DNA of 64,000 nt from an uncultured Candidatus Saccharibacteria bacterium (GCA_964463635.1 CAYXCB010000001.1:7526-71525); one strand, 5' to 3'; shown: positions 11,590 to 19,227, numbered from the stretch's first letter. The notes: generated by a model from the letters alone, not told the origin. Program-made: numbers and translations.

Positions 11590-12885
11590 TTAAGTGAGGA
11601 TCATTTTTCCTAGCCCTAGGAATACTAAAAAGCCAAACACATCGGTGGCAGTCGTAATAAAAATAGTTGCTGAGGCGGCGGGGTCCTTGCCAAGCTTAGA
11701 CATAATCAACGGCACGAGCGTGCCGAAAAACGCCGCGACTAGTAGGTTTATGACCATGGCCATGGCAAGAATAATGGCGATTTTAGTGTCACGGTTAAAG
11801 ATGATGACTACCACCGCAACGATAATTCCATTAATCAAACCATTGACCAATCCTGCACCGACCTCGTTCTTGAGTGTCCGAAGCGCCGTACGCAGCTCAA
11901 TTTGCTTCAGGGCTATACCTCGTACTAGTACGGCTAGCGTTTGAGTCGCGGCATTGCCGCCCATGCCGGCCACGATTGGCATGTAAATTGCCAGCAGTAC
12001 GTATTTGTCCAATGTTTCTTCAAACATTCCCACCGTAAACGCCGCCAAAAAAGCCGTGCCAAGATTGATGATCAGCCAGCGGTAGCGGTGCTGGACTTTG
12101 CGACGAGCCGAGTCAGTAACAGTTTCTTCCTGGTTAATACCAGCGAAGTCATACAAGCTGGAGGCTTCTTGCTCGTGCAGCATTTTGAGCACATCGTCAG
12201 AGTAAATAATGCCGACAACATTGTCGGCGTCGTTCTTAACAACCACCTTGGCATGCGGGTGGGACTGAAAAAGATGCAGTACCTCGTCGTGAGTAGCAGC
12301 ATATGATATTGACGGGACGCGCTTGACGTATTTGCCAATTAGTTCAGTCTTACTGGCAAAGCCCAGTTCATGACCAGGCATAAAACCGGCTAGGTGCCCG
12401 TCTGTTTTCATTACTAGAATCACAGGCGGCCGGCCAGTACGGCGTTCATGTTGTTTGAATTGTTTGGCTGTTTCAGTAATCGTGTCATTAACTGCGGCCT
12501 GAATATAGTCCAAGGTCATAAGGCCAGCAGCAGTTTTTGCATCGAATTCGAGCAAAGTTGACAGCGAATCTTTGAGATCCTGGCTAAGCAGCTGGAGGGC
12601 GCGTTCGCGCTTGTGTGGTGTTAGCAGCTGCAGCAGATCGGTGGCATCATCCGGATCCACGCTTTCTAGAATAGCGACTAGTTCTTCATCACCAATCCGC
12701 TGCAAAATGTCTTGTTTGACGTGAGGGGTAAGCGTGTCGAGCAGCTCAATCTGTTTGTCCAGGGGCTGACCCAGGAAGACTTGAGTCCGCTTGTCTTTTT
12801 TAAAAAGTAAATCCCTTAGCAGCAGCGGGTTAACGACGTTCAGATTTATGCCTAGGTTATTTTTAAACTTTTTAGAGAATTTCAT
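11590..12885 (-). CDS. mgtE: magnesium transporter MgtE
   Basis: MgtE N-domain, CBS pair and C-terminal 5-TM domain with GGNAATQ; 431 aa. Confidence 0.85.
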   Translation of the reverse strand: MKFSKKFKNNLGINLNVVNPLLLRDLLFKKDKRTQVFLGQPLDKQIELLDTLTPHVKQDILQRIGDEELVAILESVDPDDATDLLQLLTPHKRERALQLLSQDLKDSLSTLLEFDAKTAAGLMTLDYIQAAVNDTITETAKQFKQHERRTGRPPVILVMKTDGHLAGFMPGHELGFASKTELIGKYVKRVPSISYAATHDEVLHLFQSHPHAKVVVKNDADNVVGIIYSDDVLKMLHEQEASSLYDFAGINQEETVTDSARRKVQHRYRWLIINLGTAFLAAFTVGMFEETLDKYVLLAIYMPIVAGMGGNAATQTLAVLVRGIALKQIELRTALRTLKNEVGAGLVNGLINGIIVAVVVIIFNRDTKIAIILAMAMVINLLVAAFFGTLVPLIMSKLGKDPAASATIFITTATDVFGFLVFLGLGKMILT

Positions 12886-12945: not shown

Positions 12946-13356
12946 CTATAATCTGTTTTTAGCTTCTAATTCGTGGATGCGCTGGTGGTCCAGCCCGTAG
13001 TAGTGTGCGATTTCGTGCCAGAGGGTGTGTTTGATCTTACTTTTGAAATCTTCTAGATCGGCTGAAGCATAGAAAAGAGGCAGCTTGAACAGAGTAATCT
13101 TGTCAGGCAGGACCAAATTGTAGCTGGCGTTGCGCTTAGTCAGCGGAATCCCCTCGTACAAGCCAAATAATGTCTGGCTGCAATGCAGTTTAAGCTTTTG
13201 GCGCTGGGTTTCAGTCGGTTCGTCCTCGTAGGTGACTAAAACGTTGTTGAGCCGGGTAATATACTCTTCGGGCAACTCATCCATAGCAGCCGATATATAC
13301 TTGTCGAAGTCTTCGTCTGAGATACTTAACATGTTAAGTATTGTATCACATAGCAC
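12946..13356 (-). CDS. zincin-like metallopeptidase family protein (PF06262-like); true start may be the ATG at ~13332
   Basis: C-terminal HEIAHYYGLDH (HExxH...H) in a ~130-aa protein. The start region is overlapped by a 22-bp palindromic MarR-type box. Confidence 0.55.
   Translation of the reverse strand: MLCDTILNMLSISDEDFDKYISAAMDELPEEYITRLNNVLVTYEDEPTETQRQKLKLHCSQTLFGLYEGIPLTKRNASYNLVLPDKITLFKLPLFYASADLEDFKSKIKHTLWHEIAHYYGLDHQRIHELEAKNRL
13321..13343. promoter_or_regulatory. palindromic operator (MarR-box-like) GATACTTAACATGTTAAGTATTG overlapping the start of the peptidase gene
   Basis: Perfect 14-bp palindrome CTTAACATGTTAAG plus flanks; near-identical 22-nt site at 18375..18398 directly upstream of marR. 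Confidence 0.55.
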
Positions 13357-13364
13357 AAATTATT

Positions 13365-13391
13365 TTGACATTTAGGCTTGAGCGTTATAAT
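13365..13391 (+). promoter_or_regulatory. candidate sigma70-type promoter (TTGACA ... TATAAT, 15-nt spacer) for a short plus-strand transcript
   Basis: TTGACA at 13365-13370 and TATAAT at 13386-13391; an intrinsic terminator follows ~150 nt downstream. Confidence 0.4.
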
Positions 13392-13399
13392 GAATAATA

Positions 13400-13565
13400 T
13401 GAACATTAACAAAAAGAGGGGAGGTAATCTTTTGAAACAAGTCCTAATATCTAACGGACAAGTATCTGTAGTTACGCGCGGGAGGTACGCGCTTAACTAA
13501 CCTCCCCTAGCTTGTCTAAGTAGGCAGAATATCTTGGCCGCTCCGACTCGTCGGGGCGGTTTTCT
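13400..13565 (+). ncRNA. candidate small transcript (sRNA or 22-codon leader peptide) bounded by promoter and intrinsic terminator
   Basis: Long-range pairing GGGGAGGT...ACCTCCCC, internal hairpin GCGCG-GGAGGTA-CGCGC, terminator stem CCGCTCCGAC/GTCGGGGCGG followed by TTTTCT. A TTG-initiated 22-codon ORF (MKQVLISNGQVSVVTRGRYALN) sits after a GAGGGGAGG Shine-Dalgarno. Confidence 0.35.
13538..13565 (+). terminator. intrinsic terminator
   Basis: GC-rich 8-10 bp stem (one G-U) followed by TTTTCT. Confidence 0.55.
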
Positions 13566-13710
13566 ATTGAAATTCGACAAAGATTACAAACCCAAGCCAG
13601 CTTACTTTTCAATGCGCGACGCCCTGGAACAAGACTAGTTTCTTTTTAGCCTTTTGACCAGTAAGGCTAAGGCAAAACCATTACGCTGCTTACTTCGTAA
13701 GCTTTAGCGC

Positions 13711-13740
13711 CATACTTTCTTGTGTCGACAAGAAAGTATG
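13711..13740. repeat. perfect 30-bp palindrome CATACTTTCTTGTGTCGACAAGAAAGTATG
   Basis: Exact 15+15 inverted repeat centred on GTCGAC inside a 950-bp non-coding region. Confidence 0.8.
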
Positions 13741-14254
13741 CAAAGAAACGACGGCTAGATAAAAAGCGTTACTTTGCACGGTTAAAATAAGCCGTGCCTG
13801 CGGAACGGTCCGCCCATGTCTGCGCATGGGGGACAACGGTCCAATTCTGTTTTCTTAGTAGAAGGAATTGGACTGGTCCTCAGCAATGACTCGGCTCATT
13901 TTAACCTTAGCAAAATCAGCTTTTTATAACCCGACCAAGACCATGGAATATCTGACGGCAAATAAATAATACTTTAGGCCATGGCGGCCCAGCCAGGCTC
14001 TGGAAGTTCCTGATGACTGAATGTCAAAGGCACAATTTCTGCGCAGGGGATGTTTAAGCCCATATCTCTTCTTTGAAGAATTAATGAAAGATATGGGTGA
14101 GTTCCCCGGAGCCTTGTGGTTCTTTGACATTCGAGCGATTAGCGAGAATGTATGCCGAGCCCAAGCAAACCAGTCCTTGAAAAAGAAAAAGTTTGCCTGG
14201 CGTGAAGCTATACAATGAAGTCATAAAGAACTGGAATTGCCTGGGAGTTTTTGC

Positions 14255-14280
14255 CCACCTTTTGGCGGACCAAAAGGTGG
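14255..14280. other. stable hairpin (11-bp stem CCACCTTTTGG / CCAAAAGGTGG, 4-nt loop) just 3' of the 14307..14963 gene; not a canonical terminator
   Basis: Perfect 11-bp stem with no downstream U-run on either strand. Confidence 0.5.
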
Positions 14281-14306
14281 AAAGATTGCTTCTTGGAAAG
14301 AAGAAA

Positions 14307-14963
14307 CTAGAGGCTGTCGCCGTCCATGGCCATAAATATGCCGCTTATTTTAGCTTGGGAGTCAAAAGTAAATGACACCACCATATCATCAGCTGACATA
14401 CCGACGAAAGCGCTTTCTGGGAAGTACTGCTTGTAGTCGCCAGTCCCCCATTTGGTAAGCGTAGCGGCTGGCAGAGAAAAGTCCCAGGGATCAGTAGCAC
14501 TATCCAGATATTTTAGATCGCTAATGGCTTGGGTTGGTGTCCGATCACCGATGCCTTCACTGGCCGCTAATATAACCTTTATCTTGGAGGCCATGTAGCC
14601 CTCCAGTGCCGCAGTGTTGCCGCTTTTAATGGCATCTTCGATGTTGGCCAGGGCTTCGGCAGTTGGCGCCTTGGTTTCGGCTACGGTTGCTGGTGTAGTA
14701 TCTTCCGCAGCTGCCTCTGATTCAAGCTGGCTTATTCTTAGTTGTAAAGCCATTATTTCTGATTTATGATTTTTGGCTTGGTCTTTGGCTTCCAGGTCTC
14801 GCCAATAATACGCGCCTCCGCCAGCAGCTAGCAAGAACAAAGTGAATAAAATAAACACTAGTAAAGATACGTTTCTCTTGGTGCCTTTTGCCTTCGACAC
14901 AGGTTGCGCCGCTTCGGGTTCAGTTTTCTGAGTTTGATTGTTTCGATTGAAGTCCATATCCAT
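14307..14963 (-). CDS. hypothetical membrane-anchored protein with coiled-coil segment
   Basis: N-terminal TM helix (LLVFILFTLFLLAAGGGAYYW) followed by a coiled-coil-like region; 218 aa. Confidence 0.45.
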   Translation of the reverse strand: MDMDFNRNNQTQKTEPEAAQPVSKAKGTKRNVSLLVFILFTLFLLAAGGGAYYWRDLEAKDQAKNHKSEIMALQLRISQLESEAAAEDTTPATVAETKAPTAEALANIEDAIKSGNTAALEGYMASKIKVILAASEGIGDRTPTQAISDLKYLDSATDPWDFSLPAATLTKWGTGDYKQYFPESAFVGMSADDMVVSFTFDSQAKISGIFMAMDGDSL

Positions 14964-15251
14964 AGTAATCCTTTTTAACAGTTAGGTGAATTGTAGCATA
15001 AGCACGTTGATATGCTGTAAAAACAAAGAGAAGCCTTTTGAGGGGCTTCTCTTTGTCGCAGCTTCAGCTTTTTACGGCCTGGGTGCTAATCACCTCACAG
15101 TGACTAAGGCTGACTATAGGCCTGAGCAAATAGCCTGTCAAGTACTTTAGTAATTTACCGCTGTTTGCCTGTTGTTAAACGAGCGAGCTTTCTTGCTGAC
15201 GGCCGCATGCAAGCTTGTTACGCTGAAATTGCATTAACATAGGAGGGACCA

Positions 15252-15383
15252 ATGGCAAAAGATAGAAAAGACTATAACGATATGACCCGCGAGGAACTCG
15301 TGGCGATTATTGGCATTGAAGACAATCCGAACTACACTCGAGTTGAGCTGATTGATATGGCTCGCGATCGAGACACTTCAATG
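15252..15383 (+). CDS. small hypothetical protein (43 aa), not in ORF track
   Basis: ATG preceded by AGGAGGGA Shine-Dalgarno at -7; MAKDRKDYNDMTREELVAIIGIEDNPNYTRVELIDMARDRDTSM; followed by a strong terminator. Confidence 0.4.
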
Positions 15384-15409
15384 TAAATATATTTTCCTAC
15401 CCCTAAAAA

Positions 15410-15437
15410 GACCCCGAAAGTCGGGGTCTTTTTATTT
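15410..15437. terminator. bidirectional intrinsic terminator
   Basis: GACCCCGA-AAG-TCGGGGTC stem flanked by AAAAA upstream and TTTTTATTT downstream, between convergent genes. Confidence 0.7.
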
Positions 15438-16049
15438 GCGCAGAATAATTCTGGCGTAGCCGCGGGTGGCAGTAAAGCTCAAAATTAGCGCCAAACCAAA
15501 TACAACTCCCGCTAAGGCAGTAACAGACCGCCGTTCTGTAATATAAGCTAGCGTATATAAGCTAAGGGCTGACCATTGGAGCGTGGTAGCGTATTTTCCA
15601 GTGCGCGAGGTGTGCATAATTTTGTGCTGGGCTTTGGCCATAATCGATAAAACGGCATTTGTCAGATGTATTAGCGCAATTAATACAGCTTGCCAGGGTA
15701 ATAAAATATTGGTGATTACAAGTACCGGCAAAGCGGCGGCAATTTCCAGTTTGTCAATGCTGGCGTCTACGGCTTCGCCGACTGGACTTTTGGTGCCGGT
15801 TTCTTCAGCCACCATGCCATCAACGATATCAAGCACTCGACCGGCTACGATTAGAATCAAGCCTCGCCAAGTATGGTTGTAGTACAAATCGACCAATCCA
15901 AGCAGCACCAAAACTAGGCCTGCCAAACTCACGGCGTTGCCGGGCGTGACAATTCCATTAGTACTGGCAGCCAGACGCTGCCAGTAATTGCGATGCCTGA
16001 CTCGCAGCTTTTCCCAATCCGGTTTTCGGCTGGCACGATGAAGTTTCAC
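15432..16049 (-). CDS. CDP-alcohol phosphatidyltransferase family protein
   Basis: DIVDGMVAEETGTKSPVGEAVDASIDK matches D-x2-DG-x2-AR...G-x3-D-x3-D; multi-TM. Confidence 0.7.
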   Translation of the reverse strand: MKLHRASRKPDWEKLRVRHRNYWQRLAASTNGIVTPGNAVSLAGLVLVLLGLVDLYYNHTWRGLILIVAGRVLDIVDGMVAEETGTKSPVGEAVDASIDKLEIAAALPVLVITNILLPWQAVLIALIHLTNAVLSIMAKAQHKIMHTSRTGKYATTLQWSALSLYTLAYITERRSVTALAGVVFGLALILSFTATRGYARIILRK

Positions 16050-16075
16050 TCCTTCATCATAGCAAATAGCTGTTT

Positions 16076-17260
16076 TTAGACTACAAAGGTCAGGGCGTGG
16101 CCAACTCGTCCAGCTCGGCCGGCTCGGCCGACACGGTGGATATAATCCTGATAGGTTTGCGGCTGAGAAAAGTTAATGACATGAGTAATGTCGACAATGT
16201 CGATGCCGCGGGCAGCCACATCGGTAGCAACCAGCACGCTGACTTCACTGTCCTTGAAGCGTTTCAGGGCTCGCTGACGCTGGCTTTGATTCTTGCCGCC
16301 GTGGATCGAATCGGCTTTGAAACCTCGGCTAATCAATTCGTTGCTTAGTTTTTCAACACCGCGCTGAGTTTCGTCAAAAACGATGGCTTTTTCGACTTCG
16401 CCCTTTAGCAATAGATCATGCAGTTTGTCCATCTTATCGAGAGGTGATAGGCAACGCACGATGTCTTGGTTGACCATATCGGTAGTTTCACCAGTTTTGA
16501 TCGACACAGTGACTGGGTCAGATGTAAAGTTTTGTATCAAATTGTTGATTTTGTGGTCGAGCGTGGCCGAGAAAAAGAACGATTGGCGCTTGGCAATTAG
16601 ATTGCTAAGTATTTTGGTCACGCTATCGACAAAGCCCATGTCAAGCATGCGGTCTACTTCGTCCAATACAACCGTATCAAATGTAGATAGGTTTAGCGTT
16701 CGGCGCTCCAGGTGATCTTGAATCCGGCCAGGCGTACCGATTACAATTCTAGGTCGTGATTTCAGGTCGGCCAGCTGGCGTCCCATCGAAGTACCGCCAA
16801 TGAGCAGGGCTCCGAATAGGCCGCTGCCTTTAGCCATCCAGCGGCATTCCTGCTCGATTTGCTGAGCTAGCTCGCGGGTTGGCGCGATAATCAAGGCCTT
16901 AGAGTGCGGGTTATTAATTAACTTGTTAAGTATGGGTATAGCAAAGGCAGCTGTCTTGCCGGTGCCGGTGTTAGCAATGCCAATTACATCCCGGCCTTCT
17001 AGGCCGAGTGGAATTGTCTGGTCCTGGACTGGCGTTGGGACTTCGTAGCCCTTGTGTATGATGTTGGTCTTCAGTAACTGATGGACATTGAAGTCTGCAA
17101 AAGTGTGCTTGGCAACGTAAACGTCCTCTGTCACGCCTGTGGCACGACGGACGAAACGGGTCGGGTCGATATACTCGCCCCGACGTTTAGGACCGGAGAC
17201 ATTGCGTCGCCGGTTATGATTGGACGACTTGTAAATCGTCCGGCTTTTATAATTCGGCAT
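16076..17260 (-). CDS. DEAD-box ATP-dependent RNA helicase
   Basis: Q-motif, Walker A AxTGTGKT, DEVD, SAT and HRVGRAGRAGR motifs. Confidence 0.9.
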   Translation of the reverse strand: MPNYKSRTIYKSSNHNRRRNVSGPKRRGEYIDPTRFVRRATGVTEDVYVAKHTFADFNVHQLLKTNIIHKGYEVPTPVQDQTIPLGLEGRDVIGIANTGTGKTAAFAIPILNKLINNPHSKALIIAPTRELAQQIEQECRWMAKGSGLFGALLIGGTSMGRQLADLKSRPRIVIGTPGRIQDHLERRTLNLSTFDTVVLDEVDRMLDMGFVDSVTKILSNLIAKRQSFFFSATLDHKINNLIQNFTSDPVTVSIKTGETTDMVNQDIVRCLSPLDKMDKLHDLLLKGEVEKAIVFDETQRGVEKLSNELISRGFKADSIHGGKNQSQRQRALKRFKDSEVSVLVATDVAARGIDIVDITHVINFSQPQTYQDYIHRVGRAGRAGRVGHALTFVV

Positions 17261-17886
17261 AAAAAAGAATCCTCTATATTTTTAACTTGTTACTTTGGTG
17301 CTTGATTGCTCAGATGAAGCCAAAGTGATAGTCAAAAACTCGGATTCATGGAAAGACAATACCTATACATTAGCATGATATCTGTCCTGAGTCAACGTTA
17401 TAACAAAAAAGCACCAGAAAATCTGATGCGTTTTTGGTGGAGCTGGTGGGTACTGCCCCCACGTCCGCTAGTTTAACTGGTTAGTCTATCCTACAGGTGT
17501 AGGTCATTTGAATACATCATGGGATAAAAATGACCAAAAAACCATGATGGTCGATCCTGATCTTAGTCCGACTACGGATCAATTGCCGAAAGCAATCAGA
17601 AAATATGTCACGCTGTATCGCTATCTGATGTCACAATAGGCGCGGCTTTAGAAATTAAGCTAAAGCTGGTGCGAACTGGCGACCGAAGAGAAGTGTTTTA
17701 CCACTCTCAAAGGCGCTAGCTACGCGATCAAGTAGTTTTGCAACTATTTGGGTTCGTCTATACGCTGACAAGCGACCTGCTGATCTAACCGTTAAAGTCC
17801 AACGTCGAGCTTAAAATTCAGCCCCGTATATGATTTATCACTTCTTACAGTGATCTGTACATTATACCACTTATGTCAATAAATTG

Positions 17887-18342
17887 CTAGTTATGGAAAT
17901 GCTGGCCGCCACTGCCGGGATGGCAGGCATGGTCATGCATGATTGACATGATGTCCAGCAATTGCTGCTTCTGCTTATCGGTCAATTTATCAAACATTGA
18001 TTGGTGATAACTGTTCAAGATTTTTAGCGCCTCTTCGTTCAGCCGCAAGCCTTTGGACGTGGGAGTAGTAATGTGCCGGCGACGGTTGTCTGGACTGACT
18101 TTGCTCACTAGTAATCCGTCTTCTACCATTAACTTGATCTGCCGGCTAACGCTGGCCTCGGTCTGGCCTAAGGCACCAGCAATATCCCGCTGCTGCACGT
18201 AAGGGTTGCGCTCTAGCACCATTAGAATCTTGAACTGAGAAAAGCCTATCCCGAGTCGTTCCTGCAAAACCTGGTCATTCTGACGGGCCAGGGTAAAGGC
18301 CAGGTGCTGGAGTAGGTAGCCAATATTGTTAGTCGGACCCAT
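17887..18342 (-). CDS. MarR-family transcriptional regulator with His/Cys-rich C-terminal tail
   Basis: Winged-helix MarR core (FSQFKILMVLERNPYVQQRDIAGALGQTEASVSRQI); tail HDHACHPGSGGQHFHN. Confidence 0.8.
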   Translation of the reverse strand: MGPTNNIGYLLQHLAFTLARQNDQVLQERLGIGFSQFKILMVLERNPYVQQRDIAGALGQTEASVSRQIKLMVEDGLLVSKVSPDNRRRHITTPTSKGLRLNEEALKILNSYHQSMFDKLTDKQKQQLLDIMSIMHDHACHPGSGGQHFHN

Positions 18343-18374
18343 GTACTAATGCTAGCATGAAGTACTTTACTTGT

Positions 18375-18398
18375 TAATACTTAACGTGTTAAGTATTA
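18375..18398. promoter_or_regulatory. palindromic MarR-box-like operator TAATACTTAACGTGTTAAGTATTA upstream of marR
   Basis: 12-bp inverted-repeat arms; 33 nt upstream of the marR start; near-identical to the 13321..13343 site. Confidence 0.6.
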
Positions 18399-18411: not shown

Positions 18412-19227
18412 TTAGACCGAATTGCCCAGTTGCTTATATAAGGCGTACCAGCTTTCTAGTGATAATTCCTGAGGACGCGAGCCAGGTTTGAGGCCAGCTC
18501 GAGTAATAGCGGCTGAAACGTCCATTTTACTCTGTTGCAGCCCGCCGCTCAAGGAGTTCAACAGCGTCTTTCGCCGGTTGCTGAATCCTGCTTTAACCAG
18601 TCTAAAAAACTGTTTGGTGTCAACATCCGTAAATAATGGACTAGTCCGATGCTTTAGGATGATCACCTGAGAATCGACTTTGGGCGGGGGAGAGAAGAGT
18701 CGTCTAGGCACTTCTCTGCCTAGAATAGTTTCAAAGTAGTACTGGGCGCTAACGGATAACAATGACATCTTGCCAGGGACTGCAGCTACGCGTTCGGCGA
18801 CTTCCTTTTGGACAAGCAATACAGCGATCACGGGCGGATTAACAGATTCGCTGAACGTACGGATCAGTTTGCTAGTCAAATAATACGGTATGTTCGCGAC
18901 GACTTTGTAGCCGGCCGGCAGGTCGCCAAGGTCAAAGTCCAGTATACTTCCCTTCACAAATTGCAAATTATTCGCAATCTTCTGAGAGATTAGATTATCG
19001 ATCAAGCCTTCGTCTAATTCCACCGCCACGACCTGCCCTGCCCGATCCGCCAGAACTCGGGTCAATGTTCCAGTACCCGGCCCAACCTCAAGCACCGTGT
19101 CTTCCCTGCTAATCTCGGCCGCATCGGCAATATCATTCAGGGCTTCGCTATCATGCAGCCAATGCTGCCCCAACGACTTCCGGCCTTTCTGCAGCCCATC
19201 AATAGCTGATTCATGAATATCAGCCAC
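18412..19227 (-). CDS. rsmA: 16S rRNA (adenine1518/1519-N6)-dimethyltransferase RsmA/KsgA
   Basis: LGQHWL N-terminus and SAM motif LEVGPGTGTLT. Confidence 0.85.
   Translation of the reverse strand: MADIHESAIDGLQKGRKSLGQHWLHDSEALNDIADAAEISREDTVLEVGPGTGTLTRVLADRAGQVVAVELDEGLIDNLISQKIANNLQFVKGSILDFDLGDLPAGYKVVANIPYYLTSKLIRTFSESVNPPVIAVLLVQKEVAERVAAVPGKMSLLSVSAQYYFETILGREVPRRLFSPPPKVDSQVIILKHRTSPLFTDVDTKQFFRLVKAGFSNRRKTLLNSLSGGLQQSKMDVSAAITRAGLKPGSRPQELSLESWYALYKQLGNSV

Follow-up and report, generated by a model that had tools for sequence, protein, structure and literature searches.

A palindrome shared by a marR promoter and a mini-zincin start codon as the putative operator of an autoregulatory MarR repressor in Saccharibacteria

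In a 64,000-nucleotide stretch of DNA from an uncultured Candidatus Saccharibacteria bacterium (GCA_964463635.1; hereafter the window, with positions counted from its first letter), a palindrome of 20-21 bp, ATACTT(G/A)AC-NN-GTTAAGTAT, occurs in the promoter of a gene for a MarR-type regulator (marR, 17887-18342, minus strand) and again across the start codon of a mini-zincin gene (Zincin_1, PF06262; 12946-13332, minus strand). We consider it likely, with a probability of roughly 0.7, that this palindrome is the operator of the MarR protein encoded at 17887-18342. The sites, their conservation and their positions were computed, and from these we infer binding by this MarR. The 21-mer ATACTTAAC(A/G)TGTTAAGTATT is present twice, at 13322-13342 (ATACTTAACATGTTAAGTATT, no strand assigned, 32.9 bits, centred on the Zincin_1 start codon) and at 18377-18397 (ATACTTAACGTGTTAAGTATT, likewise without strand, 34.0 bits, in the marR promoter and 15 nt past the stop codon of ksgA), with identity at 21 of 21 positions; the perfect palindrome is the 14-bp core CTTAACATGTTAAG at 13325-13338. 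A first-pass annotation of this DNA had reported two near-identical copies, one upstream of marR and one at the start of the peptidase gene, and had judged that they could not be due to chance, and all of this is borne out: the proximal edge of one copy (18377) lies 34 nt upstream of the marR ATG (18342-18340), the other has the Zincin_1 ATG (13332-13330, minus strand) precisely at its midpoint, and the number of chance matches to the 21-mer with up to three mismatches expected from 100 dinucleotide-preserving shuffles is 0.00. By our estimate, the 21/21 identity between the two sites would arise by chance in 64 kb with a probability of ~1e-8 or less. When the entire window was scanned with a position-weight matrix, these two copies were followed by a third site of 24.7 bits inside a DEAD-box helicase gene and a next best of only 6.9 bits; apart from the helicase site, both copies thus score at least 26 bits above all other sequence of the window.

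The evidence that carries the operator reading comes mostly from the marR promoter itself. One genome per GTDB species was scanned, which yielded 222 loci encoding a relative of this MarR, and 80 of these were taken with 10-kb flanks (L001-L080). The 20-bp motif ATACTT[G/A]ACNNGTTAAGTAT, allowing up to three mismatches, was found within 160 nt of the marR start in 71 of the 80 species-level loci, with perfect copies in 25, against a background of 15 out of 6556 windows of 170 nt from the same loci (~0.2%). The site is centred at a median of -43.5 relative to the start codon. Its position 7 is a G in 66 of 77 marR sites, which creates TTGAC, the consensus -35 sequence, and a TAnnnT -10-like hexamer follows ~17 nt downstream; the left arm of the putative operator would therefore usually serve as -35 box as well. 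Within the promoter spacer lies the right arm, TGTTAAGTAT, which is nearly invariant (G12 and A15 in 77 out of 77 sites each). Since a spacer needs no fixed sequence, promoter function alone is an insufficient explanation for this conservation. The central dinucleotide is GT in 30, TT in 21 and AT in 11 of the 77 sites. Changes in the arms are uncompensated, ACAC...GTAT being common, and this fits recognition by a protein but not an RNA hairpin. MarR factors typically have a palindromic operator of about 16-20 bp across their own promoter, and here a 20-bp palindrome lies over the -35 box and spacer at 71 of the 80 orthologous loci; the marR palindrome is best explained as a classic, albeit putative, autoregulatory MarR operator.

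For the marR gene of the window itself, a consensus scan gave two candidate promoters. The first (P1, 18364-18392, minus strand) would use a -35 box TTAACA (18392-18387) within the operator, a 17-nt spacer and a -10 box TAAAGT (18369-18364). The alternative (P2, 18349-18377, minus strand) would combine TTAACA (18377-18372) with a TG-extended -10 box TAGCAT (18354-18349) only 6 nt from the ATG, a layout shared by two relatives (L002 and L048), and its use would give a leaderless marR mRNA. Inspection of the sequence before the marR ATG of the window revealed no Shine-Dalgarno motif. A degenerate tandem second site, AGTATTAACAAGTAAAGTAC on the minus strand (18362-18381; no strand assigned), overlaps the P1 -10 box, contains the -35 box of P2 and is weak (3.4 bits); clearer tandem second sites occur ~14 nt downstream in five relatives (L011, L017, L019, L064 and L080).

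In the mechanism that we propose, a dimer of MarR would contact both 9-bp arms, which lie ~10 bp, i.e., one helical turn, apart from centre to centre. At the marR promoter it would cover the -35 box and the spacer and so repress its own gene as well as, in most relatives, the gene for a TetA-like pump of the major facilitator superfamily (MFS) located behind marR. At Zincin_1, whose mRNA appears to be leaderless, it would span the region from the -10 box over the transcription start to the start codon, and the downstream mgtE gene would perhaps be affected by read-through. Repression rather than activation is, like the nature of the signal, inferred; this signal would release the repressor either via the conserved residues H13, H113, H136 and C140 (with C148 in most members) or as a small molecule, in the manner of other MarRs linked to pumps.

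The MarR protein of the window (151 amino acids; PF12802 45.0 bits, cut-off 27; PF01047 34.8 bits, cut-off 24.6) ends in a His/Cys-rich tail, MHDHACHPGSGGQHFHN, and is identical to P0001 of the protein collection searched, although a look-up of its exact sequence gave no record. We found 1222 homologs, and all named ones belong to Candidatus Saccharibacteria; judged by these sequences, the subfamily is so far seen only in this phylum. A profile search matched 60 solved MarR structures. The AlphaFold model (mean predicted local distance difference test score, pLDDT, 86.6) has the order of helices and strands of MarR proteins, with six helices, a two-stranded wing and a helical dimerisation domain. 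Its best Foldseek matches are CouR, MarR, MepR and ST1710, with template modelling scores (TM-scores) of up to 0.81, and over sequence and fold together the best matches are MepR, CouR, MexR and ST1710. As modelled, the fold is that of a generic MarR. Among 120 homologs, conserved residues include H13 (116), H90 (118), H113 (115), H136 (120), C140 (120) and C148 (103), which gives the C-terminus the pattern MH-x3-C-x7-C-x-H (H-x3-C-x7-C). This tail is probably disordered, being predicted with low confidence. The window MarR deviates in carrying a His in place of C148, so that C140 is its sole Cys, and six His occur within its last 17 residues. Because of this single Cys a redox disulfide switch is excluded for the window MarR; a metal site is conceivable. 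The His/Cys-rich tail noted by the first-pass annotation is thus real and family-conserved, but the metal or redox sensing that it had attached to the tail is only suggested by it, in view of the zinc ligands and the pump partner discussed below. In favour of the operator reading, L144 encodes a different MarR (ORF, i.e., open reading frame, 273-779) with a similar recognition helix, which reads SEASVSRKI where the window MarR has TEASVSRQI. A perfect and even longer palindrome, CAGTATACTTAACATGTTAAGTATACTG (L144:234-253), is located just upstream of this ORF. It was found only via the scan for perfect palindromes described below, and it suggests that the L144 MarR may be a second regulator with equal DNA specificity.

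The second copy in the window involves Zincin_1, which encodes a protein of 128 amino acids (PF06262, 83.6 bits) whose first codons, M-L-S-I, form the right half-site. An identical 128-amino-acid protein in NCBI (P0121) starts at the ATG at 13332 and not at the upstream GTG at 13356. On the minus strand the start of the gene reads TGATACAAT-ACTTAAC-ATG-TTAAGTATC, in which TGATACAAT (13340-13348, minus strand) can be read as a TG-extended -10 box that ends 7 nt before the ATG and overlaps the operator by 3 nt. Since an extended -10 box is followed, after 7 nt, by an ATG at the centre of the palindrome, the Zincin_1 mRNA is probably leaderless, with its transcription start inferred from this layout. 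As the site covers the -10 box, the start site and the start codon, a repressor bound to it would block RNA polymerase.

Zincin_1 orthologs of other genomes were mostly sampled by protein similarity, with one obtained together with a marR flank (L007) and one found by the motif scan and hence biased (L179). Of the loci picked without reference to the motif, 4 out of 10 (L201, L202, L211 and L007) carry a site with up to three mismatches at the Zincin_1 start; with a background of 0.23% this corresponds to a binomial P of ~6e-9, or ~1e-4 when the clade starting with MLSI is counted once. The sites of L201 (88% protein identity), L202 (72%) and L211 are start-centred with 2-3 mismatches, and the layout of TACAAT, 7 nt and start codon is kept in these three and in L218 and L221, where the annotated ATG is actually the end of TACAAT. 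In L007 and L179 the Zincin_1 N-terminus is different, and full sites precede it by 20-29 nt. In all, the linked site is seen in three or more registers with respect to the start codon. At least seven other diverged orthologs have a start-centred or just-upstream site, TT(A/G)AC is retained in six genomes at 69-88% Zincin_1 protein identity, and the N-terminus LS(I/V) encoded by the half-site is found in 30 of the 120 closest homologs. Going by these comparisons, the association between the operator and Zincin_1 is real, recurrent and lineage-specific.

The mgtE gene (11590-12885, minus strand; PF01769, PF03448 and PF00571; TIGR00400 215.9 bits, just under the cut-off of 232.75), for a channel of Mg2+ and other divalent cations, lies 60 nt downstream of Zincin_1, and a terminator scan predicted no terminator in the gap. 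Co-transcription with Zincin_1 is possible, while a promoter of its own is also conceivable; the pairing was seen only in the window and in the close relative L201. In most of the Saccharibacteria mini-zincin genes considered (L201, L202, L206, L209-L211, L179, L218 and L221) a -10-like hexamer precedes the start codon by 5-7 nt and no Shine-Dalgarno motif is present, suggesting leaderless mRNAs. Genes for regulators of the Fur family are found 2-3 kb from Zincin_1 in L211 (4841-5474) and L202 (6352-6384), as is, in L211 only, a ZIP transporter gene, which could reflect synteny or a zinc link.

Copies of the palindrome are not confined to these two promoters. The third site of the window (16914-16933, no strand assigned) lies within the coding sequence of the DEAD-box helicase, where the minus strand reads ATACTTAACAAGTTAATTAA, encoding I-L-N-K-L-I. 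L001 and L008 share its codons ATA CTT AAC AAG TTA unchanged, despite saturation at the synonymous positions on either side, and this suggests that in some lineages the DNA itself is under selection; L005 and L037 encode ILNKL via other codons. Perfect or near-perfect palindromes also lie inside the ksgA coding sequence of three relatives (L029:9373-9392, L045:2804-2823 and L056:9356-9375), ~600 nt upstream of the marR promoter site, where they read I/T-L-N-M/K-L-S-I between diverged flanking codons; they may possibly act as an auxiliary operator or a roadblock. Further good sites in the 80 loci occur between MFS and NUDIX genes (L023) and in the promoter of a GNAT gene (L030). Others are located upstream of a gene for a protein of 529-550 amino acids with a Pro-rich N-terminus (L052:7629-9218 and L054:8308-9960; outside the 80 loci, also L159:3-1325), which had no Pfam or NCBIfam match and whose gene sits between ksgA and marR in two of the three genomes. 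Metagenomes scanned for the perfect palindrome contributed at least 120 stretches with at least 127 sites (L081-L200), mostly with a G+C of 0.44-0.54, which resembles that of Saccharibacteria; their very mixed neighbours yielded no clean regulon. The intergenic copies precede genes for TrmD (in three diverged lineages), MMPL, TauE, metallo-beta-lactamase-fold, MarR and Zincin_1 proteins, among others. The perfect copies at trmD (L089, L090, L184 and L187) lie 0-4 nt past the upstream stop codon and 9-10 nt before the trmD start, and their terminal TAT begins a TATTAT or TATTTT -10-like hexamer. Among the metagenome matches listed, all coding copies read I-L-N-x-L-S-I, as TAA occurs in both remaining frames, and the housekeeping genes with embedded copies are those for DusB-like proteins (seven), GatB (four), LeuRS, TsaB and ApbE (three each), and FolD and ArgRS (two each).

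Several of these findings weigh against an operator dedicated to this MarR. Of the 127 perfect copies among the metagenome matches listed, 34 fall within coding regions, in long ORFs, and perfect copies adjoin a very mixed set of genes (TrmD, MMPL, TauE, metallo-beta-lactamase fold and others). Many copies follow an upstream stop codon by a few nucleotides and are themselves followed by runs of T, and by our reading of the sequences several intergenic copies are centred at -45 to -63 from the likely downstream start, which is atypical for a repressor. At the mini-zincin gene, L206, L209, L210, L213, L214 and L216, half of the sampled orthologs, have no site, and in the MLSI clade coding places its own constraint on the right arm, while 3 nt at the outer end of the left arm coincide with the -10 box. 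The first-pass annotation had named a motif scattered over many coding regions as the mark of a generic repeat. Such scatter is indeed partly seen, but 1.1 Mb of related DNA has only ~1 site every 74-111 kb, so that the palindrome is not a generic repeat. The coding copies and the mixed neighbours do temper the simple picture of a small regulon and feed the alternative that the palindrome is the site of another DNA-binding protein.

This alternative, which survives best, holds that the palindrome serves a different regulator of transcription, or else a protein of the nucleoid or segregation type with few sites per genome, some of them intragenic; it would then stand at marR by coincidence, or because that factor regulates marR. 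It would account for the coding copies kept against synonymous change in the helicase and in the ksgA genes of L029, L045 and L056, and the heterogeneous neighbours together with the low density recall parS-like sites or those of a global regulator. We nevertheless deem it unlikely. The most conserved location of the motif is the marR promoter (71 of 80 species), the signature of autoregulation; the constant neighbours are ksgA, marR, the optional MFS gene and ssrA, with no further regulator gene regularly next to the site; and arm length and spacing suit a MarR dimer, as in AdcR/ZitR. With the motif concentrated on the marR promoter, the window MarR stays the best candidate for binding it.

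A role at the RNA level, as a hairpin or terminator at gene ends, or an origin as a spreading palindrome resembling repetitive extragenic palindromes (REP) or miniature inverted-repeat transposable elements (MITE), seems very improbable. It is invited by the many intergenic copies 3-20 nt past an upstream stop codon with T-runs behind them (TrmD, metallo-beta-lactamase, MMPL and TauE; in the window, the ksgA stop), and the G at position 7 of the marR sites could still pair as G-U. However, the stem of 8-9 bp is almost all A-U, with a single G-C pair and a loop of 2-4 nt, and was not called by the terminator scan; it is the exact sequence, not just the pairing, that is kept over dozens of species and unrelated loci, with arm changes left uncompensated. 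A Zincin_1 transcript would begin at the palindrome centre, where no hairpin is possible, and copies in essential coding regions would terminate those genes. The palindrome thus differs from an intrinsic terminator, in which a G+C-rich stem precedes a U-tract and structure is conserved over sequence. It also differs from a REP/MITE-like repeat, which would have many copies per genome with conserved flanks: the flanks are unrelated and not conserved, and three sites in 64 kb, with none else above 6.9 bits, are far below REP numbers. Least probable of all is that only the marR site is a true operator and the Zincin_1 copy a by-product of a -10 box and M-L-S-I coding. In favour of this, the right arm of that copy consists of the codons ATG TTA AGT AT, the outer 3 nt of its left arm overlap TACAAT, and I-L-N-x-L-S-I, the sole open frame through the palindrome, would explain recurrence in coding DNA. 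Against it, the left-arm core CTTAAC, in the 7-nt gap between -10 box and start, has no reason to mirror a coding arm, TT(A/G)AC is retained in the six genomes mentioned above, L007 and L179 have full sites wholly upstream of a different N-terminus, and the 21/21 identity with the marR site compares with 0 matches in 100 shuffles.

If the palindrome is indeed the operator of the window MarR, AdcR and ZitR, the zinc-responsive MarR repressors of streptococci and lactococci, are the closest parallel for the DNA site. They recognise TTAACYRGTTAA palindromes, sometimes two of them, which lie across the -35 and -10 boxes in front of the regulator's own operon (PMC6372160). The arms and the 2-bp spacer, TTAAC-NN-GTTAA, are identical, and the recognition helices are comparable (SQAAVTKAIK, against TEASVSRQIK in the window MarR). 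In contrast, the centre is mostly GT, TT or AT here and YR in the published consensus (PMC6372160), the window site is 4 bp longer on each side (ATAC...GTAT), and no zinc-uptake genes are adjacent to the window marR. The zinc ligands of AdcR are E24, H42, H108 and H112 in site 1 and C30, E41 and E107 in site 2. An hhalign alignment with an AdcR sequence whose numbering is consistent with PMC6372160 places E41 on F37, H42 on K38, H108 on A105 and E107 on the conserved E104 of the window MarR, with the N-terminal ligands and H112 outside the aligned region. The family model NF038251 (AdcR_fam_Zn_TF) scores 19.6 bits against a cut-off of 175, and ZitR and AdcR are weak matches of the window MarR among PDB structures (E = 4e-4 and 9e-4). 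Although the shared arms suggest it, membership of the AdcR/ZitR family is thus rejected, as conservation is lacking at the aligned zinc ligands and the score with NF038251 falls far under the cut-off. The AdcR sequence used is without a C-terminal tail, the region in which the putative sensor residues of the window MarR lie.

Efflux-pump regulators (MepR-mepA, MexR-mexAB, EmrR-emrAB and E. coli MarR-marO) likewise have an autoregulatory palindrome over their own promoter, and the pump gene directly behind the regulator in at least 50 of the 80 relatives adds to the likeness. They differ in that the window lacks an adjacent pump and has extra putative targets, including the mini-zincin gene, and in that the conserved His/Cys tail is absent from those regulators. 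With the thiol sensors among the MarR proteins (OhrR, SarZ/MgrA and 2-Cys OhrR), most members share a Cys pair, C140 and C148, near the C-terminus. The C-terminal Cys of 2-Cys OhrR is located in a comparable region. These sensors differ in their N-terminal reactive Cys in helix 1, to which a second, resolving Cys may be added; helix 1 here carries the conserved H13 instead, and no Cys was found in the N-terminal half of 22 aligned members. The mini-zincins of PF06262/DUF1025 (Acel_2062; provisional MEROPS family M94) have the motif HEXXHXXGXXD (PMC3890501). Zincin_1 resembles them in its full-length family match, size of ~125 amino acids, lack of a signal peptide and HEXXH motif (PMC3890501), but its motif, HEIAHYYGLDH, has D at +9 and H at +10 where the family has D at +10. 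The third ligand of the window protein may consequently be H or D, one position off the family motif. We know of no peptidase activity or cellular role for PF06262.

The genomic neighbourhood of marR bears on the possible signal. The window genes discussed here, i.e., ksgA (18412-19227, an ORF of the window), marR, the transfer-messenger RNA (tmRNA) gene ssrA (17435-17825, detected by Rfam), the DEAD-box helicase gene (16076-17260, likewise an ORF), Zincin_1 and mgtE, are on the minus strand. Over the 80 loci the conserved order is ksgA, marR, an optional TetA-like MFS gene and ssrA. ksgA lies upstream of marR in 76 and ssrA downstream in 60, as detected by nhmmer with the window tmRNA, and at least 50 have the DHA1/TetA-like pump gene (166 bits with NF012174, under the Tet cut-off) immediately behind marR; ARAGORN found no tmRNA in the 80 loci, though Rfam and nhmmer detect them. 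A tblastn search found no MFS ortholog anywhere in the 64-kb window, where ssrA directly follows marR, a pump-less arrangement shared with about eight relatives. The pairing of marR with a pump gene suggests a classical pump repressor that would respond to a small molecule, in competition with the metal or redox idea, and the MFS partner points as much to the former as to the latter. It may be added that ssrA has an apparent TG-extended -10 promoter of its own (TGGTATAAT, 17860-17868, minus strand), just past the marR stop.

The first-pass annotation had assembled these elements into a small regulon, including perhaps a small RNA (sRNA) divergent from Zincin_1. The shared operator and autoregulation are retained, as is, by conservation, the link to the mini-zincin; the sRNA is not. 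This sRNA (13397-13565, plus strand), with a near-consensus promoter at 13365-13391 (TTGACA, 15 nt, TATAAT) and a strong intrinsic terminator at 13536-13561, has a fold z-score of -4.15 and homologs with compensatory base changes (L201:2754-2936, L007:19400-19498 and L094:7318-7479). It is a real, conserved RNA without an Rfam family, no family being found by an Rfam search even at E <= 1. The window operator is centred ~66 nt upstream of the likely sRNA start, but in L007 and L094 the sRNA lies kilobases from any operator site, and it is therefore not a conserved member of the regulon. Between the sRNA terminator and a gene for a protein of 218 amino acids (14307-14963), ~740 nt of the window (13566-14306) are without a convincing ORF or Rfam match.

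A much wider role is possible, though we regard it as doubtful. The MarR could be, instead of a local pump repressor, a phylum-wide regulator of Saccharibacteria with ~10 sites per genome, whose operators in promoters, start codons and the coding sequences of translation-related genes (ksgA, the DEAD-box helicase, the region upstream of TrmD, DusB-like, GatB and LeuRS) would be held against synonymous drift. Via a new C-terminal H-x3-C-x7-C module, it would link the TetA-like pump and translation genes to metal, host-derived or antibiotic stress.

In kind, the proposed system is an ordinary bacterial switch: it belongs with the familiar autoregulated MarR repressors and is specific to this phylum. 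It is mildly unusual in that a putative operator is centred on the start codon of an apparently leaderless gene and in that operator copies are embedded in coding sequence. To our knowledge, almost nothing is known of transcriptional control in Saccharibacteria and other ultra-small, host-dependent bacteria of the Candidate Phyla Radiation (CPR), and our literature search retrieved no description of a regulon or operator for Saccharibacteria or CPR bacteria. The present analysis yields a concrete, testable regulator-operator pair conserved across the phylum, together with its consensus motif, the positions of the promoters, one target that is likely leaderless and a tail that could act as the sensor. 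This opens the way to a first regulon map in cultivated members, and the repressor and its operator could be used in the genetic tools under development for Saccharibacteria.

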